Positions 1,055-51,723 of a stretch of DNA of 64,000 bases are shown here, piece by piece. The stretch covers positions 235,566 to 299,565 of the forward strand of contig CAVYKX010000004.1 in NCBI GenBank assembly GCA_963769215.1, read 5' to 3'. How positions within the stretch are numbered: position 1 is the first letter of the stretch; every line of letters begins with the position of its first letter. A program made the translations under genes and the position numbers. This DNA is from Candidatus Sulfomarinibacteraceae bacterium. GTDB taxonomy: Bacteria; Acidobacteriota; Thermoanaerobaculia; Thermoanaerobaculales; Sulfomarinibacteraceae. A model generated the notes under the pieces. The model saw nothing but the letters and a program-made list of their open reading frames with translations. It was not told where the DNA came from and did not search any database.

Positions 1055-1083
1055 CATTCCGTTCCCGATCCCATTCCCGTTTC
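1055..1083. repeat. C-tract hexamer array (GGGAAT/GGGATC/GGGAAC on the minus strand) upstream of the minus-strand start at 1010
   Basis: CATTCCGTTCCCGATCCCATTCCCGTTT. Confidence 0.7.
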
Positions 1084-1202
1084 AACGTTGAGTGCTAGTT
1101 AGGCGTGGGATCTGAGGAGTTCGCGTAGCGCTCCAATGTTGATTGCGCCCTCCTGCGGATGCGCTTCCCAGGAGGACGATGCGACGATTGTTTTTTCGGC
1201 GT

Positions 1203-1335
1203 GCTCTTCTGCAAACGGCGTCCCGCGTGGTTGCCACCCCAAACATTGTTCGGAACCTGTCGCCATCCTATTGAGAAGAGTATCCTCCCGAACAATGTTT
1301 GAAGTGGCACGCCCGATCAGCGCGCTGTTTTGCCG
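1203..1335 (-). repeat. Rod-hairpin interspersed element, alpha subtype, copy 1
   Basis: The minus strand reads CAGCGCGCTGATCGGGCGTGCCA-CTTCAAACATTGTTCGG-loop-CCGAACAATGTTTGGGG-TGGCAACCACGCGGGACGCCGTTTGCAGAAGAGC. The stem is 17 bp (2 G:U), plus an outer GCGTG/CACGC helix. Confidence 0.85.
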
Positions 1336-1350
1336 ACGCCATTCGGGGTC

Positions 1351-1388
1351 CAAGCCCCAAGCCTCAAGCCGCAGGGTGGGTGGATGGG
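1351..1388. repeat. CAAGCCN heptamers x3 plus G-box GGGTGGGTGGATGGG, abutting the stop at 1390
   Basis: CAAGCCC CAAGCCT CAAGCCG CA GGGTGGGTGGATGGG. Confidence 0.8.
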
Positions 1389-1389
1389 A

Positions 1390-2819
1390 CTACAGGCTGA
1401 ACTCAGCCGAGTGCCTGCTCACCACCTTGCCATCGCTGGTCATCGTCCAGGAGCAGCTGACGCCCTTGCCGTCCTCTTCGACCTTCACCTTCATGACAAA
1501 CTCGGTCTGGCTTCCGCTCGGGGCGACGAAACCGGTCCGCATGCTCGCCGGGTCGCCGGAGGCAATCGTGAGGTGAGGTTCGCTGAGGATCTGTCCCGTA
1601 TCGAGGTTTGTGACGACCGCGGTGACCAGGTATTGGCCGGGACGGCCCGGCTCGACCTTGATATCGACATCGATGTGCTCTACGGCGCCGATCGAGGCGA
1701 TGACCCGCTGCGGCCCGAAACGCACACCGTAACCGACCACGGCTTCCTGTTTGCGGCCTTCCTCGCTCAAAACGGTACGGAATCGCCAACCTTTGAAGGC
1801 TTCTTCGAGTGCAGAGGCATACGATGATGAGGGTGCAGCCAGGATTTCCGGGTCCCTCAGCCGGCCATCCGTCGTCAACACTCCCCGGAAAACAGCCAGC
1901 TCGCCCATCGATCCGTCAAGATCCTGATCAGTCGGCGCCACCAGTTGGACGTCAATCGCCTGGACAAGGCCGTCGCGCTCGGCCACCAGATTCGGCGGGC
2001 TTTCAACGCTCTCGACGAGAAGTACCACAGTAGGATTGCCGGCATCGCCCCGGCTCGCGATGGTCGCCGATCCCCAGGTCGTCCGCGGGAGATTGATCGT
2101 CGCCTCCGTTCTCACCTTTTTTGTCCTGCTCATCTCTTCGAGCGGCGCCACCTCCAGGACATCACCGTTTTGTGACCAACCGAGCCCGTTGCTCCGCAGC
2201 ACCAGATCGAGTGCCTGGTCCCACGGAACCTGGCGCAGGTCGACGGTGACCGTGCCGGTCACCGAGGGCCCGGCTTCAATCGTGTACGGCGTGATCTGCG
2301 AAAACACCTTCAACACGTCGCGAAGGTCAGCCCCCTGAAGCCGAAGTGAAATCTCCTTGCCGGTGAACTCTGTAGTGCCGGCAGGCCCCTCCGGCTCCAG
2401 GAACTGGACCTTGCACACCGCCCGGTCTCCGGAGAGCCGGATCGGCGTGAAGACGACCCCGATCCGGGGATTGAGGTCGACTGCCGGAAGCACCGCCTTA
2501 TGGCCGACCTTCAAGGGAAGATAGTACTGGCGGGCCAGCAGCGTCGCGAGCCGCATCGACTCTTCGACACCTCGCATGGCCTCGCCGACCATTCGCACCC
2601 GTTTGAGGATCTCCCCATCGATTGCCTTCTGGCCTCGGCGATCAACCTCAGCCTCGGAGTAGACGCCTCCGGCACCAACGTTTCTTCAGCCCGATGCGCA
2701 AACTCCGGGCCGGTCTCCAGGAGTACCGTGACCCGAACCCATTGGATCTCGTCGGCCACAGCACTGCCAGGGGCCAGCACCGCCACCGCCAGTAACGCTG
2801 CATGAATGCGATTCTTCAT
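1390..2819 (-). pseudogene. Exported multidomain protein with a PilQ-N0/STN-like domain and a TonB-C-like domain; one frameshift at about 2600-2690
   Basis: Signal peptide MKNRIHAALLAVAVLAPGSAVA (frame of ORF 2511..3110) joins the 1390..2598 frame. DLRDVLKVFSQITPYTIEAGPSVTGTVTVDLRQVPWDQALDLVLRSNGLG resembles a secretin N0/STN domain. LEEAFKGWRFRTVLSEEGRKQEAVVGYGVRF resembles a TonB C-terminal domain. There is an ATGA overlap with the upstream anti-sigma gene at 2816-2819. Confidence 0.6.
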
Positions 2820-3720: not shown

Positions 3721-3855
3721 GGATCCCGATCCCGTTCCCGGATGGGTTTGGGGCTTGGGGCTTGGGGCTTGGTTTTCTGACAGCTGTATACCAATCGAGA
3801 GACTGCAAGCCTCAGGCCTCAGGCCTCAAGCCTCAAACCATGGGCGGGCGGGTGG
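3721..3855. repeat. Composite: C-tract hexamers, GGGGCTT x3, 33-nt spacer, CAAGCCT/CAGGCCT x4, G-box
   Basis: GGATCCCGATCCCGTTCCCGG (3721-3741); GGGGCTT x3 (3750-3772); CAAGCCTCAGGCCTCAGGCCTCAAGCCTCAAACC (3806-3839); ATGGGCGGGCGGGTGG (3840-3855). Confidence 0.85.
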
Positions 3856-3858
3856 ACG

Positions 3859-3885
3859 AAAAAAACCGGGCGTTTTCGCGCCCGG
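3859..3885 (-). terminator. Rho-independent terminator after the 3911..5017 gene
   Basis: The minus strand reads CCGGGCG-CGAAAA-CGCCCGG followed by TTTTTTT, 26 nt past the stop codon. Confidence 0.6.
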
Positions 3886-3910
3886 TCGTAGAATTTTATT
3901 GCCCGGGAAG

Positions 3911-8147: not shown

Positions 8148-8211
8148 CCATCCCCCGACCAACCCAGCGCGAATTCGGAAGTCGGAATTAGGAATTTCCA
8201 CCCCGCCCCCC
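8148..8211. repeat. Heptamer array GAANTNG x4 followed by a C-box, just after the stop at 8147
   Basis: CCATCCCCCGACCAACCC...GAATTCG GAAGTCG GAATTAG GAATTTC CACCCCGCCCCCC. Confidence 0.8.
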
Positions 8212-8409
8212 ATGATCGGGTCGTCCGGATCGATGCCTCGTCGACTGTCATCTCGAGGGAGGTCGCCCTGCGGCCGAGTCGAGAGATCCCCCGAAATATG
8301 AGAGTGAGAGATTGCCAGCACCCTCCTGTAGGAGGGGATCCCTCCACTCGCTTCCAGATGCGCTTCCAGCTTCGCCGTGAAAAGCTGCTCGGTCGGGATG
8401 ACAGCGTTT

Positions 8410-8460
8410 GCGGGTGGGCGGGCGGGAAATCCAAAATCTAAAATCCAAATCAAAATCTGG
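8410..8460. repeat. G-box (canonical G4 motif) followed by AAATCNA heptamers, upstream of the start at 8510
   Basis: GCGGGTGGGCGGGCGGG AAATCCA AAATCTA AAATCCA AATCAA AATCTGG. Confidence 0.8.
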
Positions 8461-8509
8461 ACTTCAGGTCCCGCTTGCCCCTCCAGCCAACCTCGTGGAT
8501 GATATCGGC

Positions 8510-10120
8510 ATGACCGATCGTCTCCCTCCAGGTAAAGTTCCATGGGATATCGTCGCCGATTTGGTTTCAGGGACGCTGCCTCCTGAGGTGAAGCTCGGAC
8601 CGGCGGCAGGAGAAGACGCCGCTCTGATCGAAATTGGAAACGAGCTGTGGGCTGTCGCATCGGATCCCATCTCGTTCACAGCTATCGACGCCGGCCGCCT
8701 GGCAGTCATCGTCAACGCAAACGACGTGGCCGTTCGTGGTGCGAAGCCGGTGTTCTTCCTCGCCGTCGGTCTCATCGCGCCTGACGAAGCTTCGGGTCTG
8801 CGCGTTCGGGAGCTGTTGAAGCAAGTGCAGGACGCCTGCCGGGAGGTGGGAGCAACCCTGATCGGTGGTCACACTGAAGTCACGCCGGGCCTCCCGCACA
8901 GCATGATCGTGGGCACCATGCTCGGAAGAGTTGAAAACAGACCCTTGACCACCGGAGGCCTGCGCGAGGGAGACCTGGTGGGCATGACGCGGCACGCGGG
9001 TCTCGAAGGAACTGCCATCCTGCTCTCGGAGTATGGAGATCAGATCGAGAAATTGAAAACCGCGCGGGCCACTCCAAACAATAGGGAAGCCATCTCCGAA
9101 ACCAATCTTCTGGTGGTCGACGAGGCCCTTCGCGCCGCCGCCTGCCGCGGCGTCAGCGCCCTGCACGACGTTACCGAAGGCGGAGTCGGCGAAGCCCTCT
9201 ACGAGATGGCCGTCGCATCGGGCCTCGCGATCGAAGTGCAGCGCGGCGATATCCCCGTGCTCGACGAAACGGCCCGTCTGTGCAGTGATCTCGGACTCGA
9301 CCCTCTCGGTCTGATCGGCTCGGGGTCGATCCTTGTCGGTTGTTCCGAGGACGGTCGCGACGAAGTGGAAAGCGTCTTCAGAGCATCCGGAATTCCCTTC
9401 ACGTGGATTGGTCGAGCGGAACGGGCGAGTGGGGCCGCGCAGGCAACACTGCCACGCTTTCCCCGAGACGAACTCCTCAAGACCAAGGCGATGGATGGAA
9501 TCCGGGGCGTCATCTTCGATATGGACGGCACGCTCGTCGATTCGACCTACGACTGGCCCGAAATCCGACAACGCCTCGGCGTCACCGGATCATCCATCAT
9601 CGACGATCTGAACAGCCTTCCTGAGCCCGACCGGACCCGGCGATGGGCTGAGCTCGAGAAAATCGAGACCGCCGCCACGAACTCCGCAGGACTTCACGAG
9701 GGCGCGCTCAGGCTGCTCACATTGTTGGCCGCCAAGGGTCTCGCCACCGCCCTGGTGACCAACAACAACGACACCAACACCAGCCGGCTGCTCGACCGAT
9801 TCGGGCTGCATTTCGACGTCGTCCTCACCCGCGATTCCGGTTTTTGGAAACCATCCGGTGCGCCGATCATCGAGGCGATTCAACGGCTCGGAATCGATCC
9901 CGGCCACTGCCTCGGAGTCGGCGATTCACATTACGACGTCCTTGCCGCACGGGAGGCGCGCCTGGCCGCCGTCTGCGTCCTCCACAACGGTTCGAGCCGT
10001 CACGCCGCCGAAGCGGAGCTCGCGTTCGACGATATTCCGGCGTTCATCAGATACCTGGAGATTGTCCTGCTGAACTGGATGCTGGATGCTGGATTCTGGA
10101 TGCGAAAAAACTGGCCCTAA
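8510..10120 (+). CDS. AIR-synthase-related (PurM/HypE/ThiL superfamily) protein fused to a HAD-family phosphatase domain
   Basis: N-terminal LPPGKVPWDIVADLV...GEDAALIEIGNELWAVASDPISF and GGHTEVTPG match the superfamily. The C-terminal half carries VIFDMDGTLVDS (HAD motif I), LVTNN and GVGDSHYDVLAA. The last 15 codons or so run into a CTGGATG heptamer array. Confidence 0.7.
   Translation: MTDRLPPGKVPWDIVADLVSGTLPPEVKLGPAAGEDAALIEIGNELWAVASDPISFTAIDAGRLAVIVNANDVAVRGAKPVFFLAVGLIAPDEASGLRVRELLKQVQDACREVGATLIGGHTEVTPGLPHSMIVGTMLGRVENRPLTTGGLREGDLVGMTRHAGLEGTAILLSEYGDQIEKLKTARATPNNREAISETNLLVVDEALRAAACRGVSALHDVTEGGVGEALYEMAVASGLAIEVQRGDIPVLDETARLCSDLGLDPLGLIGSGSILVGCSEDGRDEVESVFRASGIPFTWIGRAERASGAAQATLPRFPRDELLKTKAMDGIRGVIFDMDGTLVDSTYDWPEIRQRLGVTGSSIIDDLNSLPEPDRTRRWAELEKIETAATNSAGLHEGALRLLTLLAAKGLATALVTNNNDTNTSRLLDRFGLHFDVVLTRDSGFWKPSGAPIIEAIQRLGIDPGHCLGVGDSHYDVLAAREARLAAVCVLHNGSSRHAAEAELAFDDIPAFIRYLEIVLLNWMLDAGFWMRKNWP
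10075..10103. repeat. CTGGATG heptamer array inside the last codons of CDS 8510..10120
   Basis: CTGGATG CTGGATG CTGGATT CTGGATG C. Confidence 0.75.
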
Positions 10121-10187
10121 CCTGAAATCGCAGTCAAATTACAATTGAAAGCCGCCCAGCCTCAAATTTTGATTAGCCGTGAGCACA

Positions 10188-10306
10188 CTCGGCGGAGGTG
10201 CAATCTTTTGCATTGTCCGGGTCAGAACGTGCAGAACCTGTTCAGCCAGCTGGTCGGTCAATGCTAAAGGTGGCTCCTTAGCGGGAAGCGCGCACCAGAA
10301 CGGAGC
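10188..10306 (+). repeat. Rod-hairpin element, beta subtype, copy 2
   Basis: CGGCGGAGGTGCAATCTTTTGCATTGTCCGG-loop-GGTCGGTCAATGCTAAAGGTGGCTCC...GCGGGAAGCGCGC. It overlaps the 3' end of CDS 10278..11096. Confidence 0.8.
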
Positions 10307-11196: not shown

Positions 11197-11299
11197 TTCT
11201 CAATTTTGAATTTTGAATTCCCCCACCCACCCTTGGACCTTTTCGTTACCGGGGGGAGGAAGGGAATTGAGAATTGAGAATCTGAGAATTGAGAATTTT
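11197..11299. repeat. Palindromic composite: TCAATTT-type heptamers, C-box, 18-nt spacer, G-box, GAATTGA heptamers (divergent promoter region)
   Basis: GTTCTCAATTTTGAATTTTGAATTC CCCCACCCACCC TTGGACCTTTTCGTTACC GGGGGGAGGAAGGG AATTGAGAATTGAGAATCTGAGAATTGAGAATTTT. Confidence 0.85.
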
Positions 11300-11351: not shown

Positions 11352-12890
11352 ATGGAGGCTTCGATGATCGACCCGCAACTGAACCTGGCACCAAGCGATC
11401 AGCACAATACGAAACTGGTGGCCAACGTGCATCCGACGGAATGGCGAAACCCGGTCCCCGATGGACGCTACAACCTGGTGGTCCTCGGTGCCGGAACCGC
11501 AGGCCTGGTCGCGGCGGCCGGCGCCGCCGGCCTGGGGGCCAGGGTCGCGCTCATCGAGCGCTCGCTCATGGGCGGCGACTGCCTCAACGTCGGTTGTGTG
11601 CCTTCGAAGGCCGTCATCCGGTCGGGCCACGCGGCACACGACGTGCGCACCGCGAACCGCTTCGGCGTTCACGTGGAGGGCGATGTGAAAATCGATTTTG
11701 CATCAGTGATGGAACGGATGCGACAGATCCGCGCTGACATCTCCCCGCACGACTCCGCCCAGAGGTTCTCCGAGCATTACGGAATCGACATCTACTTCGG
11801 TTCGGCCCGTTTTTCCGGGCCGGATACGGTGACTGTGGGCGATACAACCCTCCGTTTCAGGAAGGCGGTCATCGCAACCGGAGCGCGCGCGGCCGTGCCG
11901 CCGGTTCCGGGACTCGTCGAGGCCGGATTCCTCACCAACCACAACGTCTTCAATCTCACCGAACAACCGCAGAGGATGGCGGTGATCGGGGGCGGGCCGA
12001 TCGGCTGCGAAATGGCCCAGTCCTTTGCGCGGCTTGGCTCCGACGTGACAATCGTCGAAATGGGTGATCACTTTCTGGCCCGGGAAGACCGGGATGCCGC
12101 AGAAATCCTGAGGGCTTCACTCTCAGCCGACGGCGTCGCTCTTCGGTTGTCCACGACGCTCCGCGAGGTTCAGAGCACAGCGGACGGCAAGCTTCTGCTT
12201 CTCGACACTCCCGACGGTGAGCAGCAACTGACGGTCGACGAAGTTCTCGTCGGAGTCGGACGCGTACCGAATGTCGAGGGACTCGATCTCGAGGCCGCTG
12301 GCGTGGCCTCCGATCGCAGCGGCGTCACCGTTGACGACTTCCTGAGAACCAGCAATCCGAGGATATTCGCCTCCGGGGATGTCTGCCTCCCTTACAAGTT
12401 CACACACACGGCTGACGCCACTTCGCGAGCGGTGATCCAGAACGCCCTGTTCCCCGGGCCGAAAAAGCGCGTCAGCAAGCTGGTGATTCCGTGGTGTACC
12501 TACACGGACCCCGAAATCGCGCACGTCGGCCTCTACCCGCACGAGGCGGAAGAGCAGGGTGTCGAGGTCGACACCTGGGAGGTGCAGATGTCGGAGGTGG
12601 ACAGAGCGCTTACCGACGGCGAGACCGTGGGTTTTCTCAAAGTTCACCTCAAGCGCGGCAGCGACACCATCCTCGGCGCCACAATCGTCGCCCGTCACGC
12701 GGGGGAGATGATCTCCGAGATCACGACCGCGATGGCGGCGGGATTCGGACTCGGATCCTTCTCGAACGTCATCCACCCCTACCCCACCCGGGCGGAAGCC
12801 ATCCGAAAGGCCGCGGACGCCTACAACCGCACCAAACTGACGCCAACGGTCGCAGGCTTGATGAAGCGGTGGTTCGCGTGGACACGATAA
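11352..12890 (+). CDS. Class I pyridine nucleotide-disulfide oxidoreductase (mercuric reductase / dihydrolipoyl dehydrogenase family)
   Basis: FAD fold VVLGAGTAGLVAA, redox-active disulfide GGDCLNVGCVPSK, second Rossmann fold AVIGGGPIGCEMA, and a C-terminal dimerisation region. Confidence 0.85.
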   Translation: MEASMIDPQLNLAPSDQHNTKLVANVHPTEWRNPVPDGRYNLVVLGAGTAGLVAAAGAAGLGARVALIERSLMGGDCLNVGCVPSKAVIRSGHAAHDVRTANRFGVHVEGDVKIDFASVMERMRQIRADISPHDSAQRFSEHYGIDIYFGSARFSGPDTVTVGDTTLRFRKAVIATGARAAVPPVPGLVEAGFLTNHNVFNLTEQPQRMAVIGGGPIGCEMAQSFARLGSDVTIVEMGDHFLAREDRDAAEILRASLSADGVALRLSTTLREVQSTADGKLLLLDTPDGEQQLTVDEVLVGVGRVPNVEGLDLEAAGVASDRSGVTVDDFLRTSNPRIFASGDVCLPYKFTHTADATSRAVIQNALFPGPKKRVSKLVIPWCTYTDPEIAHVGLYPHEAEEQGVEVDTWEVQMSEVDRALTDGETVGFLKVHLKRGSDTILGATIVARHAGEMISEITTAMAAGFGLGSFSNVIHPYPTRAEAIRKAADAYNRTKLTPTVAGLMKRWFAWTR

Positions 12891-12896: not shown

Positions 12897-13003
12897 TTCA
12901 AGTTCTCAATTTTGAATTCTCAATTTTGAATTGCCGCCACCCAACCCAGCAGTAACCTGGAGAGGGTGGGTGGAAATTGAGAATCGAAGGAATTGAGAAT
13001 TCG
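12897..13003. repeat. Palindromic composite with the same GAATTGA heptamer flavour (between convergent genes)
   Basis: TTCAAGTTCTCAATTTTGAATTCTCAATTTTGAATTG CCGCCACCCAACCC AGCAGTAACCTGGAGA GGGTGGGTGG AAATTGAGAATCGAAGGAATTGAGAATTCG. Confidence 0.85.
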
Positions 13004-13017
13004 ATCCGCGGGATTCG

Positions 13018-13567: not shown

Positions 13568-13613
13568 TTTAAACGTTGAACGTTGGAACGTTGAAACGTT
13601 TCCGCCCGTCCGC
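13568..13613. repeat. AACGTT-type heptamers plus a C-box (G-box then heptamers on the minus strand, upstream of the lptE start)
   Basis: TTTAAACGTTGAACGTTGGAACGTTGAAACGTTT CCGCCCGTCCGCG. Confidence 0.8.
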
Positions 13614-13695: not shown

Positions 13696-13751
13696 ACTCA
13701 ACGTTCTAACGTGTAACCTTTGAACGTTTTAACAGTCTTGAGGGGCGGACC
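13696..13751. repeat. AACGTT-type heptamers plus GGGGCGGACC box, just after the rarA stop
   Basis: ACTCAACGTTCTAACGTGTAACCTTTGAACGTTTTAAC AGTCTTGA GGGGCGGACC. Confidence 0.7.
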
Positions 13752-15980: not shown

Positions 15981-16095
15981 GAAATTAGGAATTCGGATTT
16001 TGGATTTCAGATTTTTCGAGCCGGCGCCACGGGCGCTCACCTCATGTGGGTGGGCGGGGCAAATCCAAAATCAAAATTCTGAATTCCAAAATCAG
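15981..16095. repeat. GGATTTN heptamers, 27-nt spacer, G-box, AAATCCN heptamers
   Basis: GAAATTAGGAATTCGGATTTTGGATTTCAGATTTTTCG ... GTGGGTGGGCGGGG CAAATCCAAAATCAAAATTCTGAATTCCAAAATCAG. Confidence 0.8.
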
Positions 16096-16102: not shown

Positions 16103-16720
16103 TCAGCCGCCGTGGACTTCTTTCTCGAGGCCGGAAAGGTCGGGAATCTGGGAGTTGCTCTTCTTCAACTCCTGAAGCGTCACAAGGGCTTCGGCCGCGG
16201 CGTCGTGCTCGTGGAGGTCGAATTGGTAGACCACAACCTTGTTGTACCAGGCCTGCCAGTGCTCCGGATCGGACGCAATCGCCTGGTCGAGGAGTTCGAT
16301 CGTGCGCTCAGGCTGACCCAGATTTCGGTACACCACGGCGAGATCGGTCACTACACTGGGATCGCCGCCGGAAATCTGGAGCGCCCGTTCGTACCACTCT
16401 CGCGCATCGTCCCAACGACTTGCGTCGAAATAGACATTTCCCATGGCCGTCAACAGACCGGGATCGTCGGGATTCGCGGCGAGCAGACCCTGGATCTCCG
16501 CTACCTGCTGCTGGAGTTGGGGATTCGGCACACCGACTGAACCCTCGACGGGAGGATGCCCCTCGGGCAGGTCTTCACCCTGACCCTGGGCGCCGGGTGC
16601 GCCGAGGCCGAGTCTGAGCGCCTTACCGGGCGGTACCGGCTGGCTTTCAGCTACGACATAGCCGAGAACGAGACCCACCATCAGGCCGATTACGAGTGTG
16701 AACCACGGGTTGCGATACAT
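16103..16720 (-). CDS. Membrane-anchored TPR-repeat protein
   Basis: N-terminal TM segment WFTLVIGLMVGLVLGYVV. TPR-like helices include WDDAREWYERALQI and PERTIELLDQAIASDP. Confidence 0.65.
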   Translation of the reverse strand: MYRNPWFTLVIGLMVGLVLGYVVAESQPVPPGKALRLGLGAPGAQGQGEDLPEGHPPVEGSVGVPNPQLQQQVAEIQGLLAANPDDPGLLTAMGNVYFDASRWDDAREWYERALQISGGDPSVVTDLAVVYRNLGQPERTIELLDQAIASDPEHWQAWYNKVVVYQFDLHEHDAAAEALVTLQELKKSNSQIPDLSGLEKEVHGG

Positions 16721-18814: not shown

Positions 18815-18862
18815 GGAGGCGGGAATGTTCAACGTTTTAACGTTGAACGTCGAAACGTTGGG
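18815..18862. repeat. G-box plus AACGTT heptamers (stop, heptamers, C-box when read from carD)
   Basis: GGAGGCGGG AATGTTCAACGTTTTAACGTTGAACGTCGAAACGTTGGG. Confidence 0.8.
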
Positions 18863-21127: not shown

Positions 21128-21168
21128 TGACGTTCAACGTTCAACGTTCAAACGTTCAACGATCAACG
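21128..21168. repeat. AACGTT heptamer array spanning the cysteine desulfurase stop codon
   Basis: TGACGTT CAACGTT CAACGTT CAAACGTT CAACGAT CAACG. Confidence 0.8.
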
Positions 21169-28980: not shown

Positions 28981-29024
28981 TTCAAAAATGGAGCGCCTAC
29001 CCTCAGCAACGATTGCGGACAATC

Positions 29025-29067: not shown

Positions 29068-29098
29068 ACAAGGTATGATGCCGCACTGGAGGACTGAG

Positions 29099-30099: not shown

Positions 30100-30165
30100 C
30101 CAGCAGGTTCTGACCGTCTCCGTACCCGACGATTCAGCGGCAGTTCAGGTTCTACCGATTTGGAC

Positions 30166-30303: not shown

Positions 30304-30523
30304 TCTTCCCGCGGCTTGATCGCGGCGGAGCCCAAAGCGCTCTGCGCACTGTGGATTGCCTGGGAAGGTCGAGGGCGAGGATTTTCTCAATGACGCTTCA
30401 GGATCCGAAATAGCTCCAGCTGATGGCGATTGAGATTCTGTGTCCTCTTGCACCGTGTCCTGTGGTGGTTCGGGACCCGCCTCATCGACTCCGGGATGAG
30501 CCGAACGCGCCGTTGTTTCGACG

Positions 30524-36318: not shown

Positions 36319-36332
36319 AACGCCGGCAGCTC

Positions 36333-38778: not shown

Positions 38779-39464
38779 GGTCGAAATTTTCGCCCGCAGG
38801 CGCGAGGCGGAAGACGCGGTCGCACATGCGGGCCATGTCCTCGTCGTGGGTCACTATAATTGATGTCAATCCTGCCATCAAATGCAGCTCCCGCACGAGG
38901 TCGAAGACCTGCTCGGAGTTGGCGCGATCGAGATTGCCGGTCGGTTCGTCCGCGAGCAGCAGCCGCGGCTTCATGGCCAGCGCTCTGAGCCACGGCGACC
39001 CGCTGCTGCTCACCACCCGAAAGCTGGTCCGGGAAGTGGTGTGCGCGGTCACTCGAGCCCCACCGCGTCGAGCAGCTCGCCGGCCCGCGCTCGTGCTGCC
39101 GTGGCGCCCTGCACCACCGATCCGCAGCGGCAGCGCCACGTTGTCCAGAGCATCCAGCTCGTCGAGCAGGTGGTGATGCTGGAAGACGAAGCCGATCATC
39201 CGATTCCGGATTCGGGCGCGCTCTTCGCCGTCGAGCTCGCCGATCGTCTCGTCCGTCGAGCTCGAGATACCCCTCATCCGGCCGATCGAGCAGGCCGATG
39301 AGATGCAGCAGCGTGCTCTTGCCGACCCCTGAAGGCCCGACAACGGCCAGCAGTCTCGCCCTGCCTGATCGTCGAGATCGAGGTCCTTCGAGACCTCGAC
39401 CCGGGTGGCGCCGGTGCCGTAGCCCTTGCTCACGCCCACGCAGCTCGACCAGGCGGTCGCTCAC
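38762..39464 (-). pseudogene. lolD: Lipoprotein-releasing ABC transporter ATP-binding protein, frameshifted
   Basis: VVGPSGVGKSTLLHLIG (Walker A), IGFVFQHHHLL, LSGGEQQRVA (signature), LLLADEPTGNLD (Walker B), IIVTHDEDMA. GTGA overlap with the permease stop. Confidence 0.75.
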
Positions 39465-40618
39465 TCATAGCGCAGTCCCTCGGCCGGCTCTCGGCGCGCG
39501 ACCAGCCGCGACGGCAGCCACGAGGCCGCTGCCGCGAGAGCCCAGCGCCGACGAGCCATCACCAACGCGACCATCCGGGTCCACCCGGAACGGCACCGAC
39601 GAAACCACGAACACCCCGCGCGGCAGCGGCAGCGCCCGGATGCGATCGAGCGCCAACGATATGGCAGACACCCAGGACGGCACCGACCACCGACCCGACC
39701 ATCCCGATGCCGAGACCGAGCAGCGAGGAAGAGCCGCCGGAGCGCGTTCGGCACCATGCCGAGCCTGGCCAGCACCGCGAGATCGGTTCGTTTCTCGGCC
39801 GCCACCATGGCCACGTTGCAGAGCAGATTGAGGGCGGCCACGACCAGCATCAGCCCCACGGCCACGAAGATCATCACCCGCTCGAGGGCCAGGGCGAGCA
39901 GCAGCGGCCGGTGAAGCTCTTCGAGACCCTCGCACCTCAACGGTCTTGCAGCTCGCCGGCCAGCACCTCTCGCAACCCGCGCGCCCAAGCCCCAGGGATC
40001 GTCAGGATCACGAAGCTCGATGGCCTCGACCACTGCCTCACCCCACAACAGACGCTGCGCCAGCTCGAGGGGAAGCCGAACCGCGCCCGACTCCGCTCCG
40101 GGTTCCGGTGATGCACGCCGGCGACCTCGACCCGCAGCCCGAACCGGCAGCGGCCCCATAGGGGTCAGCCGCTGGCGGGGCGAGATCACCTGCACCTCGT
40201 CGCCCCTGCCGACCCCGAGCCGGGCGGCAAGGATCGTGGTCGATCGCCACATCGAGGGCGTCAGAGCGGCCGACCACCGATGCCGGAACGGCATCCGTCG
40301 GCGACGAAACCAGGCACGTACCACGCACGACCTGCACCATCTCCACATGCCGGCAAGCTCGTCTTGCAAGACCGAGGCCAACTTCGACGGATCTTGCGAG
40401 CCGCCGGCCATCCGCCGGGACGACACGGGCGTGGGCGCGCGGCCGACGATCTCGGCACGGATGCTCGACTGAAAGCCCTCGAGCAGGGCCAGGGTGACCA
40501 CCAGGGCCATGACGCCAAGACCGAGACCGACCAGCGAAATCAGGGTCACCGTCGCGACGTGGGTCCGTCGGCGAAGCCCGATCAGGTAGCGCCGCGCAAG
40601 GTGCAGTTCAGCGGACAC
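39461..40618 (-). pseudogene. lolE: LolC/LolE-type lipoprotein-release permease (FtsX-like), frameshifted; start uncertain
   Basis: [56 protein letters not shown] at the N-terminus, and C-terminal ...[10 protein letters not shown]-stop. Confidence 0.65.
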
Positions 40619-40734
40619 GTTTCCCGGCCCCTTCTCCAAGAACCCGGATTGACGTCCGGCTGGCCGCACTGCCCGGCCCGAAGCGCAGCCTCGCTCGCCG
40701 GTGTTCACTCCGCACCGCACCGACGGCTCCGGTC

Positions 40735-42227
<1,493 letters not shown>

Positions 42228-43148: not shown

Positions 43149-43226
43149 TCCCCCGATTTCTGGGATACTCCGCCTCTCGGCGGGGAGAGGGAATGTATCA
43201 CAGGCAATCGAAGTGGTTCATCTTTC

Positions 43227-43404
43227 GGCGCGCTCTTCTGCACATGCCACACCGCGTGATTGCCACCCTTGACATTGATCGGACCGTTCGGCCAAGCGAT
43301 TTCAGCCTATGAGATCCCGACAATGTCAAAAGTGGCACGTCCGATCAACGCGCTCTTCTGCGGGCGCGCTTCCCGCAAAGAAGCCACCTTGAGCATTGAC
43401 CGAC
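43227..43404 (-). repeat. Rod-hairpin element, alpha subtype, copy 5, plus an adjoining truncated beta half-unit
   Basis: The minus strand reads GCAGAAGAGCGCGTTGATCGGACGTGCCACTTTTGACATTGTCGG-loop-CCGATCAATGTCAAGGGTGGCAATCACGCGG...GCAGAAGAGCGCGCC. Positions 43362-43404 equal only the 3' arm of a beta unit (GTCGGTCAATGCTCAAGGTGGCTTCTTTGCGGGAAGCGCGCCC on the minus strand). Confidence 0.8.
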
Positions 43405-43409
43405 TCACT

Positions 43410-43460
43410 GGGAGGGTGGGCGGGAATTCCTAATTCCAAAATCCTAATTCCTGATTCAAT
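43410..43460. repeat. Canonical G4 box plus AATTCCT heptamers, upstream of the start at 43479
   Basis: GGGAGGGTGGGCGGG AATTCCT AATTCCA AAATCCT AATTCCT GATTCAATC. Confidence 0.85.
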
Positions 43461-43478
43461 CGTCTATCCTGTCGAAGC

Positions 43479-44721
43479 AATGCCCAACATCGACACCTCC
43501 GCTCTCAAACGCGATCTCCTGCTTCGCGGCGTGTGGGAGGCACTCGGCACGCCCCTATGTCATGTGACGGGGGGGTATGTTCGCGATCTCCTGCTCGGCC
43601 GGGAAAGTGCCGACCTCGATCTCGTGCTTCCCGGCAATCTCGACGCAGTCAGGGGACCGGCGCGCCGGTTGGCGGCCCGGCTCGATGCCGGCGCGCACAT
43701 CCTCGGCCGGGACGAGAAGCGCGTGTGGCGGATCGAGACCGAGCATCTCAAGGTCGAACTCTGGCCGCTCGGTAGCCTCGATCTCGGCAGCGATATCCGG
43801 CGTCGCGATTTCACCTGCAACGCACTCATGTGGCAGATGCCCGACGGTCCCCTCATCGATCAGGTCGGTGGTATCACGGACCTCGAGACCGGAACCCTGC
43901 GAGCCGTCAAGAAATCCAACCTCGAGAGGGACCCCGTGCGTCTGGTTCGCGCGGCTCGCTTTCTGGCTCAGTTCCCCGATTTCGAAATTGACCAGACAAC
44001 GGCCGGGTGGCTTCGATCCCTTGCGTCTCGGGTGTTGCGCTCGCCCAGCGAGCGCCTCGGTCAGGAACTACTCAAGCTGGTTGCGGCATCAGACCTCGAA
44101 CGCGGTTTTCGAGCACTCCTGGACTTCGGCCTGATGCGGCACATGGTGCGGCCCGCGGCTCGTTTTGACGACGCATGGATGACCGCCAACCTCGATGCTT
44201 CCACCCGAATGCAACTGTCAACACATCCATCACGTGCCGCCCTCGCAGCGGCAGGCGACGCTGCTCCTCTTGCCATGCTCTTGCGCGCCTGGGGCTCACC
44301 ACATCCTGACGCCACCGCACCCTATGCCTGGCCGCGCAGCCTTCGGACGCACGCGGCCCTCGCCGCACAGTTGCTCGACCAGGTCATACCCGCGGTTGAC
44401 GGCCCGGTCGGAAACCGACGCGCCTTGATCCATCGAGCAGGACACGCCTTCCCTGCCGCCCTCGCCTTCGCGGCCGCCATCGAACCCGAGCACAATTGGG
44501 ATCGATGGTGGCGTTTGTGGCGTCAACGCGGCCCGGAATTGGTTGATCCCGAGCCGCTTCTTTCCGGCAACGAAATGTCCGCCGCGCTCGGCATCCCTCC
44601 TGGCCCCTCCCTCGGCCGCGCCATCGACGCTCTCACCAAGGCGCAGGTCCGCGGGAAAATCCATACGGCCGGTGGTGCGAGGAGATGGCTCAAAAAGAAC
44701 GTTGAAACGTTAGAACGTTGA
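43479..44721 (+). CDS. CCA-adding enzyme / poly(A) polymerase-family nucleotidyltransferase
   Basis: GGYVRDLLLGRESADLDLV and RRDFTCNAL head-domain motifs, plus DPVRLVRAARF. The last 8 codons or so lie in an AACGTT heptamer array. Confidence 0.75.
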
Positions 44722-44797
44722 ACGTTAGAACGTTCCGACCACCCACCCAGGCTATGGGCTATAGGCTATGAGCTATGGGCACCTCCCACCCGCCCGG
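44697..44797. repeat. Double unit: AACGTT heptamers, C-box, GGCTATG heptamers, C-box; spans the stop at 44721
   Basis: GAACGTTGAAACGTTAGAACGTTGAACGTTAGAACGTT CCGACCACCCACCC AGGCTATGGGCTATAGGCTATGAGCTATGGGC ACCTCCCACCCGCCCGG. Confidence 0.85.
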
Positions 44798-44807
44798 TTG
44801 ACCAAAG

Positions 44808-45058
44808 GCTGAACGGCACGCTCAGCGGAGGTGCCATTTTTTGCATTGTCCGGATCGTGACGCCTCTAACGGTCTGGCATCATGGTCGGTCAATGCTAAA
44901 GGTGGCTCCTTTGCGGCAAGCGCGCCCGCAGAACAGCGCGCTCGCCGGAGCGTGCCAGTTTTCGCATTGTCCGGAGAGTCGACTGCAACTGAGATGTCGG
45001 TTGGGTCGGTCAATGCGAAGGCTGGCAACTCTCGGGAAGCGCGTTTGCAGAAGGGCGC
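44808..45058 (+). repeat. Two tandem rod-hairpin elements (beta subtype, copies 6 and 7) sharing a GCAGAACAGCGCGC junction
   Basis: Unit 1 is ...GGAGGTGCCATTTTTTGCATTGTCCGG...GGTCGGTCAATGCTAAAGGTGGCTCC.... Unit 2 is GCAGAACAGCGCGCTCGCCGGAGCGTGCCAGTTTTCGCATTGTCCGG...GGTCGGTCAATGCGAAGGCTGGCAACTCTCGGGAAGCGCGTTTGCAGAAGGGCGC. Confidence 0.85.
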
Positions 45059-45113
45059 ATTGAAGGAGTGAGCGCGGTCCAGAATTGGTATCGGGCTCCA
45101 AGACGGGCACGGG

Positions 45114-45577: not shown

Positions 45578-45635
45578 GGATTCGGCCGAATTCGGATTTC
45601 GGAATTCGGAATTCAGAATTCCCACCACCCCACCC
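45578..45635. repeat. GAATTCG/GGATTTC heptamers plus a C-box (G-box then heptamers toward the VOC gene start on the minus strand)
   Basis: GGATTCGGCCGAATTCGGATTTCGGAATTCGGAATTCAGAATT CCCACCACCCCACCC. Confidence 0.8.
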
Positions 45636-45690
45636 ATGAGGAACTGCAGATAAACACAGATCGAATTCGAAGATCTGTAGGGAGTGCGAC

Positions 45691-45817
45691 GGCAGAAAAG
45701 CGCTTTGATCGGGCGTGCCACTTTGAACAATGTCGGAACCTCTCGGGCTGAAATCGTTTCGGCGAATGGCCCGATCATTGTTAAGGGTGGCAAACCGCCG
45801 GCGGCTGCGATTTGCGG
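45691..45817 (+). repeat. Rod-hairpin element, alpha subtype, copy 8
   Basis: GGCAGAAAAGCGCTTTGATCGGGCGTGCCACTTTGAACAATGTCGG-loop (GGCTGAAATCGTTT, as in copy 5)-CCGATCATTGTTAAGGGTGGCAAACCGCCGG. Confidence 0.8.
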
Positions 45818-45913
45818 CCCAGGATTCGTCGTCAGGCGAATCCATGGGCCGCGCGCAGGCGACGGTGCTTCACGGCGGCCCCGGGCCGCCAGTAACCACG
45901 CGGTAGGGCGTCC

Positions 45914-46042
45914 GCAGAAGAGCGCGCTCGCCGGAGCGTGCCAGTTTTCGCAATGTCCGGAGAGTCAATCTGAAATGAGATGCCGGCCGGGTCGGTCAAT
46001 GCGAAGGCTGGCAACTCTCGGGGAGTGCGTTTGGAGAACAGC
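45914..46042 (+). repeat. Rod-hairpin element, beta subtype, copy 9 (preceded by a degenerate 3' end of another unit at about 45870-45913)
   Basis: GCAGAAGAGCGCGCTCGCCGGAGCGTGCCAGTTTTCGCAATGTCCGG...GGTCGGTCAATGCGAAGGCTGGCAACTCTCGGGGAGTGCGTTTGGAGAACAGC. Confidence 0.85.
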
Positions 46043-46085
46043 TCGGTCAACCTTGGAGCGCCAAGCCAACAGTGATGATTTCGTT

Positions 46086-46109
46086 GGGATCGGGATCGGT
46101 ATCGGGACC
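46086..46109. repeat. GGGATC hexamer array upstream of the cstA start
   Basis: GGGATCGGGATCGGTATCGGGACC, 23 nt before the ATG at 46132. Confidence 0.75.
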
Positions 46110-49253: not shown

Positions 49254-49973
49254 ATGAAACGCGCCCTGTTTTTCGTCCTTGTTGTCATCCTCCTGGCTCA
49301 CCCATCGGTGAGCAGTGGGCAGAACAATCTGGTAGCGAACGGTGACTTCGAGGGCGGCGCCGCGTCGTGGTCGGAGTGGTCGAGCCCGGGCGGATGGACC
49401 ACCGATGTGTTTGCCCACGACTACGCATCCGGAGTCCCGATCTGGATGCCGGTGCCTTATCCATATGCTGGAGTCGGCAGTCACGGCCAGCACGTCGGCA
49501 CCAACAACGTGCACGGTGGGTTCTTCCAGGTGGTGAACGTCCAGGCAGGGATGAGCTACATCGTCTCGGGCATGTGGTCCGGCGGTATCGGCGAAAGCGG
49601 TTCGTTGCCATTCGACGTCGCCTGGTTCGAGGTCACGGTCTATCAGGGCGCCGTCGGGCAGGCGGAGATCGATGGTGCGCCCGGCCCCGGCGATGTGGTG
49701 ATCGCGAAACGGGAGTATACGAACGACTCGATCATTTCTTTCGCTTGGGAACAGTTCAGCGGGTCGTTTGTCGCAGAACAAGACCAGGTGACGCTCGCAT
49801 TCAAGACCGGCAAGGTGAGTCCGAACTGGCATCCGATCGCCGCCTTCCACGATGATGTCAGCGTACGACTTCTGGCCGAAGAGATACCGGCCCTCGGCCC
49901 CGCTGGAGTCCTGGTGTTCTTTGTTGTTCTGGCAGCGATCGGCGCGGCGATCCTGTCGCGCCGGACCGGCTGA
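49254..49973 (+). CDS. Secreted protein with a CBM-like N-terminal domain and an IPTL-CTERM-like sorting tail
   Basis: Signal peptide MKRALFFVLVVILLAHPSVSSGQ, then NLVANGDFEGGAASW. C-terminal EEIPALGPAGVLVFFVVLAAIGAAILSRR (motif, TM segment, basic residues). Confidence 0.55.
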   Translation: MKRALFFVLVVILLAHPSVSSGQNNLVANGDFEGGAASWSEWSSPGGWTTDVFAHDYASGVPIWMPVPYPYAGVGSHGQHVGTNNVHGGFFQVVNVQAGMSYIVSGMWSGGIGESGSLPFDVAWFEVTVYQGAVGQAEIDGAPGPGDVVIAKREYTNDSIISFAWEQFSGSFVAEQDQVTLAFKTGKVSPNWHPIAAFHDDVSVRLLAEEIPALGPAGVLVFFVVLAAIGAAILSRRTG

Positions 49974-50036
49974 GAGTTTGACCTGACCCGATCCCGACGT
50001 GCCACACCGCAGACTGAAGAGCCAAGCCGGGCCTCG

Positions 50037-50483
50037 CTACGAAGCTTGCGGAGCCTTGCCCCAGGTGGTGCCTGGCTGCTCGACGGTGTAGTAGACCCGG
50101 ATGTCTTCCAACTCTTCGAAGATTCGTGGGACCACCTGGACCGGCATGCCGATCTCGGCTTCGTCGATCGAGTCGCCGAGCCAGGCCAGGAGCCGTCCGC
50201 CTTCCTCGAGGTCGACCAACGCCACGGTGTACGGGGCGATGTCGTCGAAGCCGGTCGGTGCCGCGGCCACCGTCGAGTGGGTGTAGATCGTTCCCCGGCC
50301 GCTGATCTCTTTGAACTCGAAGCTGCCGCTCAGGCACTCGGAGCAGTCGGCGCGCGGCGGAAAGCTGAAATCTCCGCACTCCGAGCAGACCGAACCCATG
50401 AGCCGCCCATCCTTGAGATGGACTGCGAAGTCCGAGACCTTCGAGTACGGCACGAAGTTGACTTTTCCGAACCAGCTCGGCAT
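50037..50483 (-). CDS. Zn-ribbon/OB-fold protein (DUF35 family, thiolase partner)
   Basis: CSECGDFSFPPRADCSECLS rubredoxin-like knuckle followed by an OB fold. It sits immediately downstream of the thiolase-like gene. Confidence 0.75.
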   Translation of the reverse strand: MPSWFGKVNFVPYSKVSDFAVHLKDGRLMGSVCSECGDFSFPPRADCSECLSGSFEFKEISGRGTIYTHSTVAAAPTGFDDIAPYTVALVDLEEGGRLLAWLGDSIDEAEIGMPVQVVPRIFEELEDIRVYYTVEQPGTTWGKAPQAS

Positions 50484-50486
50484 GGC

Positions 50487-51636
50487 TCAGTCCCTCCTGA
50501 AGAGATTGACAAAGGTGTACTGGCCGATGCCGCCGACGTTGTGGGTCAGACCCACGGCGGCGTCCGGCACCTGGCGGTCGCCCGCGTCACCTCGCAGTTG
50601 GGTGACGATCTCGTAGGCCATCGACACGCCGGTGGCGCCGATCGGATGGCCCTTCGCCTTGAGGCCACCGTCGACGTTCACCGCCACGTCGCCGCCGATG
50701 TACGAGCGCTTCTCCTCGATGAACGGACCGCCCTCACCCTTGGCGCAGAAACCGAGGTCCTCATAGGCCATGATCTCGGCGATGGTGAAGCAGTCGTGGA
50801 CCTCGGCCACATCCACGTCCGCGGCGCCGACGCCGGCCATCTCGTAGGCCTGGCGGGCCGCGTCCTGCGCCGAGGGCAGACCCACCAGATGCGGTCGCCG
50901 GAGCACCGACATGCTGGCGGTGGCGCACCCGACACCATCGAGCCACACCACCTTGTCGCCGTGCTCGGCGGCCCGCTCCTCGTCGGCGAGGATGACGCAG
51001 GCCGCGCCGTCGGCGTTGGCGCAGCAGTCGTAGACGCAGAAGGGCGACGCCACGGGATCCGAGGCGAGCGCCTTCTCCATCGTGATCTCTTTGCGGAAGA
51101 GGGCGTTGGGGTTCATGGCGCCGTAGTGGTGGTTCTTGATCGCGACCTCGAGAAGCTGCTCCCGGGTGGTGCCGAACTCGTGCATGTGGCGGTTGGCGAA
51201 CATGGCGTAGTACGAAGGGAAGGTGGTCCCGAAGACCGACTCCCACTGGACCTCGCCGACCCGCCCCATCAGCGCGAGGATCTCGGCGGTGCTGAGCTCG
51301 GTCATCTTCTGGCAGCCGATCACCGCCACCACATTGTGCAGGCCCGGATTGGATCGCCATCCACGCGGTGCGGATGGCGGCGCTCCCCGACGCGCAGGCG
51401 ACCTCGGTCAGCCAAGTGGGTTTGGGGTTGAGACCGAGGTACTCCTGGACCACCCCGGCAACCGATCGCTGCTTGTGGTACTCGGGCACCGCGCCGATGA
51501 CCGAGGCGTCGATCACGCTCGCGGATCGATGCCGGCATCCTCGATCGCCGCGCGAAACGCCTCGAAGGCGAGCTCCTGCACGGTGGCGTCACCGCCTGCG
51601 CCCGTGCCCGATACCGATGACTCCGACTCGCGTCAT
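50487..51636 (-). pseudogene. Thiolase-domain (SCP-x-type) acetyl-CoA acetyltransferase-like protein, 3 frameshifts (about 51350, 51525, 51590)
   Basis: MTRVGVIGIGHG / ATVQELAFEAFRAAIEDAGIDP / VIGAVPEYHKQRSVAGVVQEYLGLNPKPTWLTEVACASGSAAIRTAWMAIQSG / VAVIGCQKMT...VHDCFTIAEIMAYEDLGF...GGLKAKGHPIGATG. Confidence 0.75.
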
Positions 51637-51672
51637 GCCTGTCCTCCGATGACTCCCATCACCCTAGCGTCA

Positions 51673-51723
51673 GAGCGGGCGGGTGGAATTCCTAATCCGA
51701 ATCCTAACTCTCAACTTCAAATG
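51673..51723. repeat. G-box plus AATCCT-type heptamers spanning the SDR gene stop (stop, heptamers, C-box on the coding strand)
   Basis: GAGCGGGCGGGTGG AATTCCT AATCCG AATCCT AACTCT CAACTTC AAATG. Confidence 0.8.

Follow-up and report, generated by a model that had tools for sequence, protein, structure and literature searches.

Extragenic box-plus-heptamer modules oriented toward flanking genes in an uncultured Acidobacteriota lineage

Introduction

Bacterial heptamer repeats were first described around 1990 and have gone unexplained since. One of them, the GGGGAYT heptamer of Nostoc, corresponds to the STRR1 heptamer, CCCCAGT, of which it is the reverse complement. Here we analyze a 64,000-nt stretch of the bacterial contig CAVYKX010000004.1 (the window), in which intergenic regions carry a two-part module composed of a G-rich box (G-box; C-box when read on the other strand) and an adjoining tandem array of mostly 7-nt units. 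The modules are a lineage-specific family of ~48-nt repetitive extragenic elements in an uncultured Acidobacteriota lineage, which is probably Thermoanaerobaculia. The family is a variant of the already known, functionally unexplained bacterial heptamer repeats, and its separate box distinguishes it from its nearest described relatives, the Xanthomonas and Nostoc heptamers.

The GGGAATC heptamers of Xanthomonas and the GGGGAYT heptamers of Nostoc are intergenic, prefer about four units and lie at most 50 nt from open reading frames (ORFs), the nearest ORF being found 5' of the G-rich strand whichever way that ORF is oriented; their function is unknown (PMC4692102, Rehm et al. 2015). The modules share with them tandem 7-nt units, a strongly intergenic location 0-50 nt from gene ends and sometimes over a stop codon, a preference for about four units and the occurrence of inverted pairs. 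The unit is almost the same (ATTCC core), and its polarity is shared as well: the array strand that contains G has the nearest ORF on its 5' side, and the complement reads into the gene (GATTCCC there, AATTCCK here). However, in Xanthomonas and Nostoc every unit contains a G-run and the array itself can form a G-quadruplex (G4), whereas here the G-runs are gathered in a separate, tetramer-repeat box, which sits at the gene-distal end of the array and on the strand opposite to the Xanthomonas and Nostoc G-runs; furthermore, copy number is 2-26 in those heptamers and a tight 4-5 here. Xanthomonas and Nostoc belong to phyla different from that of the module lineage, and the likeness is one of unit and placement.

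Other described systems resemble the modules in part. TAACTGA direct repeats, known from marine Beggiatoaceae, cyanobacteria and Bacteroidetes, have been proposed to bind S1, cold-shock proteins (Csp) or CsrA (MacGregor 2015, PMC4679880). Like the modules, they are tandem heptamers (2-6 copies) at hundreds of intergenic sites near starts and have no link to gene function, but they lie mostly a few nt upstream of starts on the coding strand, whereas 60% of the modules are at stops, and they have a single unit sequence and no adjoining G-box. With the repetitive extragenic palindromes and mosaic elements (REP/BIME) of enterobacteria and pseudomonads, the modules share a high extragenic copy number, enrichment at convergent or 3' positions, mosaic composition, hairpin-forming pairs and use as insertion sites for other small elements. 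They differ from REP/BIME in being short tandem repeats with a strict polarity to the flanking gene, and neither a 20-40-nt REP palindrome nor a GTAG/CGTC tag was found in them. Termination at a G4 followed by a weak hybrid is known from the mitochondrial conserved sequence block II (CSBII). The combination of a G4 and an AT-rich element serves as a promoter predictor for GC-rich bacteria (G4PromFinder, PMC5801747). Both architectures have, like the modules, a G-run motif beside an A/T-rich tract in GC-rich DNA, but in the modules this tract is periodic, an array of 33 nt whose core is conserved; moreover, modules occur equally at stops, and a promoter model leaves these unexplained. An earlier annotation of the window from its sequence (the original prediction) did not recognize a described repeat family. 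This was right for the separate G-box cap, since a module of G-box cap plus array was described neither in the literature that we searched nor in a 2025 survey of short tandem repeats, and wrong for the heptamers, which have relatives (GGGAATC, GGGGAYT; PMC4692102).

Results

Occurrence and spread of the modules

The feature is real and statistically overwhelming. The window contains ~19 box-plus-array modules, of which 16 are class A (the G-box followed by an array 3' of the box on the G strand) and 3 have the reverse order (array, box, gene), as well as 3 arrays without a box. All sites named by the original prediction are present, at or within a few bases of where it had placed them. In the shuffled intergenic control that it had proposed, Tandem Repeats Finder called 12 intergenic arrays (period 7/8, at least 2.9 copies) in the window, whereas 100 dinucleotide-shuffled versions of the intergenic segments had 0.09 on average and never more than 2; a degenerate 30-nt module pattern gave 2 matches in the window versus 0.00 expected.

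Nor are the modules confined to this contig, as had been thought conceivable. Relatives were collected by one scan of metagenome contigs with the pattern GGGNGGGNGGGAAWTYNNAAWTYNNAAWTY, which matches just 2 modules of the window; it yielded at least 120 contigs, and module figures refer to the contigs listed, nearly all of 58-68% G+C and many from one JGI sample series. A module detector independent of the search pattern, which requires a box with three or more units of period 7/8 no further than 3 nt away, scored 220 of the 408 boxes in 566 kb of these relatives as modules, and 1, spuriously, of the 172 boxes in a control set of 1.26 Mb around rarA from 80 other genomes, 49 of which have at least 55% G+C and many of which are Acidobacteriota. 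A search of 2.9 million viral contigs gave no module matches, and a phage origin was rejected on this ground.

The RarA protein of the window has its top genome match in a Thermoanaerobaculales (Acidobacteriota) metagenome-assembled genome (MAG) at 75% amino-acid identity and its second in an Acidobacteriota MAG at 69%, with every other match at 57% or below. An exact-protein look-up showed that an identical RarA is encoded on three short metagenome contigs, each 99% identical to the window and of the same species; the same look-ups for lpd and for ORF 17503-18729 gave no match. The closest genome relative, L001 (a Thermoanaerobaculales MAG), carries just a (TCGAGAA)5 array and a (GGGATC)3 run. 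At L001:18560-18680, inverted TCTCGAT/ATCGAGA heptamer arrays flank a short C-run with no G3N1 box, which may be a simpler form of the module.

Module anatomy

The box is a G3N1 repeat of 11-17 nt whose loops are a single T, C or A (T > C > A), and the array follows 0-3 nt further 3' in a fixed register. In a regular-expression list for the window, strong intergenic boxes of the type GGGNGGGNGG(G) almost always had tandem 7-8-mers directly 3' on the same strand. Of the arrays in the listed relatives, 151 followed the G-box on its 3' side and 33 preceded it on its 5' side; 13 of these 33 were the array of the preceding box in a stack. The 151 arrays had period 7 in 145 cases and 4-5 units in 121 (range 3-13); their boxes had four runs of 3 or more G, with loops of 1-2 nt, in 60 cases and otherwise three G3 runs or GG runs.

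The repeat sequence, initially described as differing between loci, turned out to be less variable than this suggests. In 106 modules outside the search pattern, the 49 nt past the box show a 7-nt periodic consensus, M-A-W-T-Y-C-N, whose register is fixed by the box; the periodicity stops sharply at ~33 nt, and G makes up 0-8% at unit positions 1-6. Between units of one array, the 7th position differs 2-3 times more than positions 3 and 5. Most of the differing heptamers (GAATTGA, GGATTTC, AAATCCA, AATTCCT, GAATTCG) correspond to an AAWTC core plus two free bases, and a second unit group (CAAGCCT, CATAGCC, CAGCATC, ATCGAGC) occurs in reverse-order arrays. The supposed variability had been used as an argument against a sequence-specific binding protein. 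This argument is weakened by the conserved AAWTC core and the phase-locked arrays of 4-5 units: because the arrays are phase-locked, share the consensus MAWTYCN and vary most at the 7th position, a sequence-specific reader is a possibility. Slippage or gene conversion probably maintains the arrays, with constraint on the AAWTC core and on length. The description of the repeats as AT-rich fits class A arrays (58-78% AT) and does not fit CAAGCCT, GGCTATG or CTGGATG, and some of the boxes (13601, 18826) are weak. On the box strand the arrays consist of A 0.33, C 0.26-0.27, G 0.09 and T 0.31, equally beside starts and stops. G thus accounts for ~9% of the units on the box strand, the other strand has no G-run longer than GG, and G3 runs are confined to the separate box.

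Folding of four-run boxes predicts an RNA G4 (-40 vs -11.5 kcal/mol) with the array unpaired, and none for three-run boxes; in the window a G4 is predicted at 8412 and 43410 and none at 28816 or 51677. A complementary C-box (at least 9 of 11 bases) lies within 80 nt upstream of 46 of 211 boxes compared with 3 of 211 in shuffled sequence, mostly across loops of 5-29 nt, and head-to-head pairs give predicted hairpins of -42 to -47 kcal/mol. In these models the C-box/G-box hairpin is frequent and not obligatory; an obligatory hairpin was rejected with a partner present for just 22% of boxes.

Three further readings of the parts were discarded. Copy-and-paste of whole arrays, prompted by a shared GTTATGA variant, was rejected as the variant unit occupies different positions in different loci. 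A supply of stop codons in all frames was rejected by eye, as AATTCCG/CGGAATT and AAATCCA/TGGATTT contain no stop triplet. Finally, a Chi-like or DNA-uptake-sequence reading of the G-box was set aside as the boxes are mostly intergenic and their orientation flips within 50-100 nt.

Orientation toward genes

In the window, the array is turned toward the nearest gene end in 16 of 16 class A modules and the box toward the spacer interior, the array lying -3 to 24 nt from a stop or 9 to 131 nt from a start. Genes were called with a crude custom caller using codon log-odds trained on the window, by which stops are safe and starts approximate. The original prediction that the heptamers stand next to the gene was correct in its lists of stops and starts, and it also holds in related contigs: among the 116 class A modules of the listed relatives that had a called gene on either side, the array side was nearer the gene in 99 and the box side in 17, and the ratio was 49:12 in modules outside the search pattern. 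The 17 exceptions are mostly missed genes or complex stacks. The median distance to the gene was 29 nt from the array and 201 nt from the box.

Modules abut stop codons in 60% of cases. At stops, the array begins -30 to +25 nt from the stop in 52 of 85 modules; at starts, it finishes 10-100 nt from the start in 37 of 57. The box is nearer the gene in reverse-order modules (9:2), so that in both classes it is the box's G strand that leads into the nearest gene. Neighboring modules stand box to box in 25 cases and in the same orientation in 36, while arrays facing each other were found in 0 of 61; loops of 10-24 nt separate 12 of the 25 head-to-head pairs, and 7 of the 25 have common 6-mers in their paired arrays. 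Modules occupy 48% of convergent, 31% of divergent and 22% of tandem junctions. The unit profile is identical at start and stop codons, and the sense mRNA therefore has the G-box strand at its 5' end and the C-box strand at its 3' end. Since starts and stops are symmetric, a function common to both would reside in the DNA or depend on the direction in which the gene is approached, rather than act through the sense transcript.

Persistence and variation between relatives

Low-complexity arrays align regardless of orthology, which inflates the percent identities of arrays, and positional persistence was used for this reason instead. At orthologous junctions with 78-87% flank identity, modules persist while loops and spacers decay, and the number of array units differs by 0-1 between orthologs. 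The lpd/lptE spacer of L198 (78% flank identity), which was not pattern-selected, keeps the succession of array, C-box, loop, G-box and array around an unrelated loop. Likewise, the aldehyde dehydrogenase ortholog in L121 (83% identity) has kept box and array at its stop, with homogenized units. In L121 the stop comes just before the array; in the window, ORF 22608-24086 runs 17 nt into the array, and from this comparison it appears to have been extended into the repeat. In 99%-identical strains, two of three modules were unchanged and one array had unit-level changes, and the stack at 44696-44795 was identical at 96-97% identity, with an extra 118-nt unit of another repeat close by. In some orthologs other repeats are inserted between the boxes, or between box and array, and the gene-adjacent modules are kept. 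A phase-variable simple sequence repeat was rejected, as copy number is stable between strains and the flanking genes are housekeeping genes (lpd, rarA, lptE, aldehyde dehydrogenase, nucleotidyltransferase).

Sequence changes were also seen at module borders. Between L143:6840-7036 and L158:1543-1987, identity steps from 79% to 98% exactly at the module, and the 99%-identical strain L081 (5354-5822) has, compared with the window at 13018, an unrelated repeat-filled spacer directly past the lptE stop. Breakpoints of recombination or rearrangement, or else contig ends, seem to fall at the modules.

A second dispersed repeat, 'X', is an imperfect palindrome of ~150 nt that always lies in the interior of intergenic regions, has no Rfam match and carries the motifs GCTCTTCTGC ... 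GTTGCCACCCTTAGCATTGACCGACC ... CGGACAATGC.AAAA.TGGCACCTCCG ... GCGCT.TTCTGC. In the window it occurs at 1185-1350(+), 10165-10300(-), 28835-29000(-), 30150-30320(+) and 43215-43410(+), as two tandem units at 44800-45080(-) and as two units at 45685-46065(-). A box/array module lies on its 3' side at 6 of 7 loci, and one 118-nt X unit is present or absent between 97%-identical strains. Hexamer arrays, (GGGATC)n / (CCCGAT)n, at 1064-1078, 3722-3740, 29021-29068 and 46086-46107 turn their G-run strand toward the nearest gene start and seem to substitute for the G-box on the far side of X elements.

Transcription signals near modules

Neither sigma-70-like sites nor hairpin-plus-T sites exceeded the shuffled expectation in the window. 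The only convincing canonical terminators there, 3864-3887(-) and 24152-24174(+), are both beside modules, not inside them. In L085-L203, a canonical terminator was present within 160 nt of the gene 3' end in 13 of 250 module-free and 6 of 89 module-bearing cases (~5-7%), and a hairpin-plus-U terminator followed 2 of 60 stop-side modules. The module as an intrinsic terminator was rejected, as the box is followed by AATTCC with no T-run and the scans were not above chance.

A -10-like TANNNT motif lay within 30 nt past the array in 39% of start-side and 22% of stop-side modules compared with a background of 5.7%; by our own estimate, much of the 22% at stops is the TA of reverse-complemented stop codons. 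At starts the motif is often just 7-12 nt before the ATG, directly past the array. This spacing suggests that mRNAs are leaderless or very short-leadered at start-side modules, and that the gene's own, often short-leadered transcript would begin beyond the array. The motifs TATCCT, TATACT, TACCAT and TACACT were seen at window positions 43460-43482 and at start-side modules of L117, L137, L162, L150 and L110.

Individual modules and other features of the window

The class A modules are described here along the window. At 8171-8211(-), 24 nt past the stop at 8147, the array GAATTCGGAAGTCGGAATTAGGAATTT is followed by C-box CCACCCCGCCCCCC (the G-box on the minus strand), and at 8412-8457(+), upstream of an AIR-synthase/HAD gene, GGGTGGGCGGGCGGG precedes 4-5 AAATCCA-type units, with a predicted RNA G4 of -40 kcal/mol. 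A head-to-head pair occupies a divergent junction at 11198-11232(-) and 11251-11297(+), reading array, C-box CCCCCACCCACCC, 18-nt loop, G-box and (GAATTGA)x4.7, and its predicted fold is a long hairpin of -47 kcal/mol. A second pair, at 12898-12947(-) and 12964-13005(+) in the convergent lpd/lptE junction, reads array, C-box, 16-nt loop, G-box and array. The module at 13572-13609(-), (AACGTTG)x3.8 with the weak C-box CCGCCCGTC, lies 9 nt from the called lptE start at 13563, which had previously been placed at 13545. At 16048-16093(+), GGGTGGGCGGGG precedes (AAATCCA-type)x4.7, the array ending 10 nt from the stop of 16103-16720(-), and at 18826-18866(+) the weak box GGAGGCGGG precedes an AACGTT-type array that overlaps the stop of 18863-19366(-). 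The module at 24070-24133(-) has a split box; its array overlaps the final 17 nt of ORF 22608-24086, and the canonical terminator 24152-24174 lies beyond. At 28788-28826(-), 7 nt past the stop at 28781, (ATTTCGG)x3.6 is followed by a C-box. At 43410-43459(+), GGGAGGGTGGGCGGG and (AATTCCT-type)x4.7 are followed by the -10-like TATCCT and an ATG at 43480. A stack of two same-orientation modules at 44696-44748 and 44750-44795 (both -) follows and overlaps the stop at 44721; it reads (AGAACGTT)x5 with a C-box, then (GGCTATG)x4.4 with a C-box, and is identical in L117. At 45588-45635(-), 70 nt upstream of the start at 45518(-), (GAATTCG)x4.9 is followed by C-box CCCACCACCCCACCC, and at 51677-51716(+), GGGCGGGTGG precedes an AATTCCT-type array ending 1 nt from the stop of 51717-52460(-).

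The sites singled out beforehand as having a gene-proximal box or no box at all are as described. Reverse-order modules were found at 1350-1388(+), where (CCAAGCC)x3 leads to G-box GGGTGGGTGGATGGG 2 nt from the stop of ORF 1390-2598(-); at 3806-3855(+), where the canonical terminator 3864-3887(-) separates the box from the stop at 3911; and at 13700-13750(+), where an inverted AACGTT-type array leads to GGGGCGGACC, the box lying 5 nt from the rarA stop. The second of these is part of a composite at 3722-3855(+), which consists of C-rich hexamers (GATCCC)3, (GGGGCTT)4, a 33-nt spacer, inverted (CAAGCCT)4 and G-box GGGCGGGCGGGTGG. Arrays without a box lie at 10075-10103, a (CTGGATG)x4 within the last 45 nt of ORF 8408-10120; at 15983-16016, the inverted partner of the array at 16061-16093, with unit-level differences from the 99%-identical strains L081 and L082; and at 21130-21168, an (ACGTTCA)x5.4 overlapping the stop of 21134-22264(-). 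Heptamer arrays overlap the final 3-45 nt of four ORFs, namely 22608-24086, 43396-44721, 8408-10120 and 21134-22264.

The window itself is a 62% G+C segment of a bacterial chromosome with ordinary housekeeping and metabolic genes, including lpd, rarA, a predicted lptE, aldehyde dehydrogenase, cstA, acyl-CoA dehydrogenase and two 2-oxoacid:ferredoxin oxidoreductase operons, and it also encodes a poly(A) polymerase-family nucleotidyltransferase (possibly a CCA-adding enzyme). A tRNA scan of the window found none, and a search of it with Rfam 15 in gathering and E-value modes gave nothing at gathering score and only a meaningless miRNA hairpin match (E=0.059). The oxidoreductase gene sets at 52500-55326 and 55393-58670 are tandem paralogs with POR_N and TPP_enzyme_C domains, and their DNA segments are 77-81% identical. 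Positions 36000-42000 have 66-68% G+C compared with 62% elsewhere, are module-free and hold two long ORFs with no Pfam match; gene calls are unreliable there.

Discussion

We tentatively favor the view that the module is a direction-dependent boundary on the DNA, or on a polymerase travelling into the gene, a reading of the sequence layout that we hold to be possible and still short of probable. A transcript entering a gene from outside would be antisense at the 3' end, or read-through from the upstream neighbor at the 5' end. Such an incoming transcript would first fold very stably, into a G4 or into a hairpin with the facing C-box, and would then yield an unstructured A/U-rich, G-poor tract with C>G. 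A strong structure followed by a weak tract would be the logic of a terminator or of a Rho-loading site, in a lineage almost without canonical hairpin-plus-U terminators. At starts, the gene's own transcript would escape because the -10 motif is often just past the array. Rho utilization (rut) sites are G-poor, have C>G and U>G and are YC-rich (PMC9499579); gene-directed RNA, with 26-27% C and 9% G, agrees with this description in composition, but the tract is just 33 nt long and has a period of 7. A stronger form of the idea, in which modules would be orientation-coded punctuation replacing canonical terminators, the G4 or hairpin box plus G-poor, A/U-rich heptamer tract acting as a one-way stop turned into each guarded gene end while the gene's own promoter would fire from beyond the array, we consider rather unlikely.

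Several points weigh against a one-way boundary. The 7-nt period differs from the ~9-10 nt bound per subunit of E. coli Rho (PMC12360218), four G3 runs are present in just ~40% of boxes and a facing C-box in just 22%, and a weak hybrid would not need an array of 33 nt whose length is fixed and whose core is conserved. Nostoc has the same array geometry, yet cyanobacteria are without Rho, and the G-runs of Xanthomonas and Nostoc are on the opposite strand; the cause common to the three lineages would therefore be neither Rho nor G4 polarity. This suggests that what the lineages have in common is a C>G array strand turned toward the gene rather than the G-quadruplex. A stop signal beside the following gene, rather than past the gene's own stop codon, is also unconventional, and starts and stops are occupied at similar rates, as for generic filler. 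Lastly, contigs were gathered by module pattern and, for part of the set, both orthologs were retrieved in this way, so that part of the conservation evidence is biased.

The main rival, which we likewise regard as possible, if somewhat doubtful, holds that a selfish or neutral palindromic repeat (array, C-box, loop, G-box, array) lands in short spacers. Later insertions of modules or of the 150-nt X into or beside the boxes would push its halves apart while the arrays stay against the genes, and core and length would reflect the needs of a mobilizing or converting enzyme, not a cellular function. The 25 head-to-head pairs, 12 of which have short loops of 10-24 nt, the 36 same-orientation stacks and the absence of facing arrays favor this, as do the X-like inserts that separate C-box from G-box, or box from array, in only some orthologs, the 118-nt indel between 97%-identical strains and the different repeat-filled post-lptE spacer in a 99%-identical strain: interiors vary and gene-adjacent modules persist. 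The spread of arrays around stops would fit insertion into ~56-80-nt spacers, the convergent junctions, which are safe sites, are the most occupied, and the family is limited to one lineage. However, no target-site duplication was seen by eye at two window pairs, and no transposase is linked. Most modules are single, few pairs share 6-mers, and very asymmetric stacks (L124) are not given by symmetric nesting; moreover, tight unit numbers and intact periodicity at 78-85% flank identity need continuing maintenance. With regard to features of miniature inverted-repeat transposable elements, the 25 inverted pairs stand beside a majority of single modules and paired arrays that often differ, and the polymorphisms are in X units and interior parts.

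Explanations that involve a binding protein or the sense RNA are less probable. That AAWTC cores spaced every 7 nt form an iteron-like array read by a nucleoid-associated DNA-binding protein, by the RNA polymerase alpha C-terminal domain (much as in UP elements) or by a single-strand binder of the cold-shock-domain type, with the G-box as stop or nucleation point, is unlikely in our view. It would account for the conserved core, the free 7th position and the fixed unit number, for the ATTCC-type core shared with Xanthomonas and Nostoc heptamers and for an array over the -35/UP region at gene starts, and it can draw on the use of AT-rich element plus G4 as a promoter predictor in GC-rich bacteria (PMC5801747) and on the cold-shock, S1 and CsrA proteins proposed for TAACTGA heptamers (PMC4679880). 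But a promoter role does not explain the 60% of modules that abut stops and point into the gene, sigma-70-like sites are not enriched, the unit families AACGTTC, CATAGCC and CAGCATC deviate from the core, and the binding protein is only hypothetical. The original prediction had speculated that C-rich, G-poor RNA past stops is a Rho loading site for the sense transcript. The C-box (CCCNCCCNCCC) is indeed C-rich and G-free, canonical terminators are rare and the arrays are predicted to be unpaired where they have no partner; yet the 33-nt array on the post-stop coding strand has ~27% G and 9% C, the reverse of rut, and the C-rich part is the 11-15-nt C-box alone. Because the post-stop array RNA is G-rich, the Rho idea fits only the opposite, gene-directed strand, and the same gene-relative orientation recurs upstream of starts, where the sense strand has the G-box. 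We consider a sense-strand Rho site very improbable. Least probable of all, and already disfavored, is an element of the sense mRNA, that is, a stability or translation structure of the untranslated regions (UTRs), such as pairing of a 5' UTR's G-box and array with the array and C-box in the 3' UTR of one mRNA, or REP-like 3' hairpins. The lpd gene (11352-12890) has complementary arrays at both ends, and head-to-head pairs fold into long predicted hairpins, but the arrays at the two ends of a gene had a mean likeness of 0.19 (5 genes) versus 0.26 for random pairs, which led us to reject the mRNA 5'/3' panhandle that lpd had prompted; complementary partners are present for a minority of boxes, and the same profile at starts and stops makes the sense RNA differ between the two ends.

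Heptamers at gene ends (STRR, GGGAATC, TAACTGA) have long been known, and the module lineage offers an unusually clean case of them, with hundreds of copies, a defined length, a fixed register, a separate cap and a near-absolute strand rule at starts and stops. The symmetry of starts and stops narrows the options to DNA-level effects, effects of transcription direction or a nested selfish repeat. On the practical side, modules mark gene boundaries, break assemblies and seem to coincide with recombination breakpoints in MAGs. If the one-way stop is true, the lineage would have a punctuation system that kills read-through and antisense transcription just before gene entry, whether intrinsic or by Rho loading, and the same polarity in Xanthomonas and Nostoc would then indicate that bacterial heptamer repeats share a general function.

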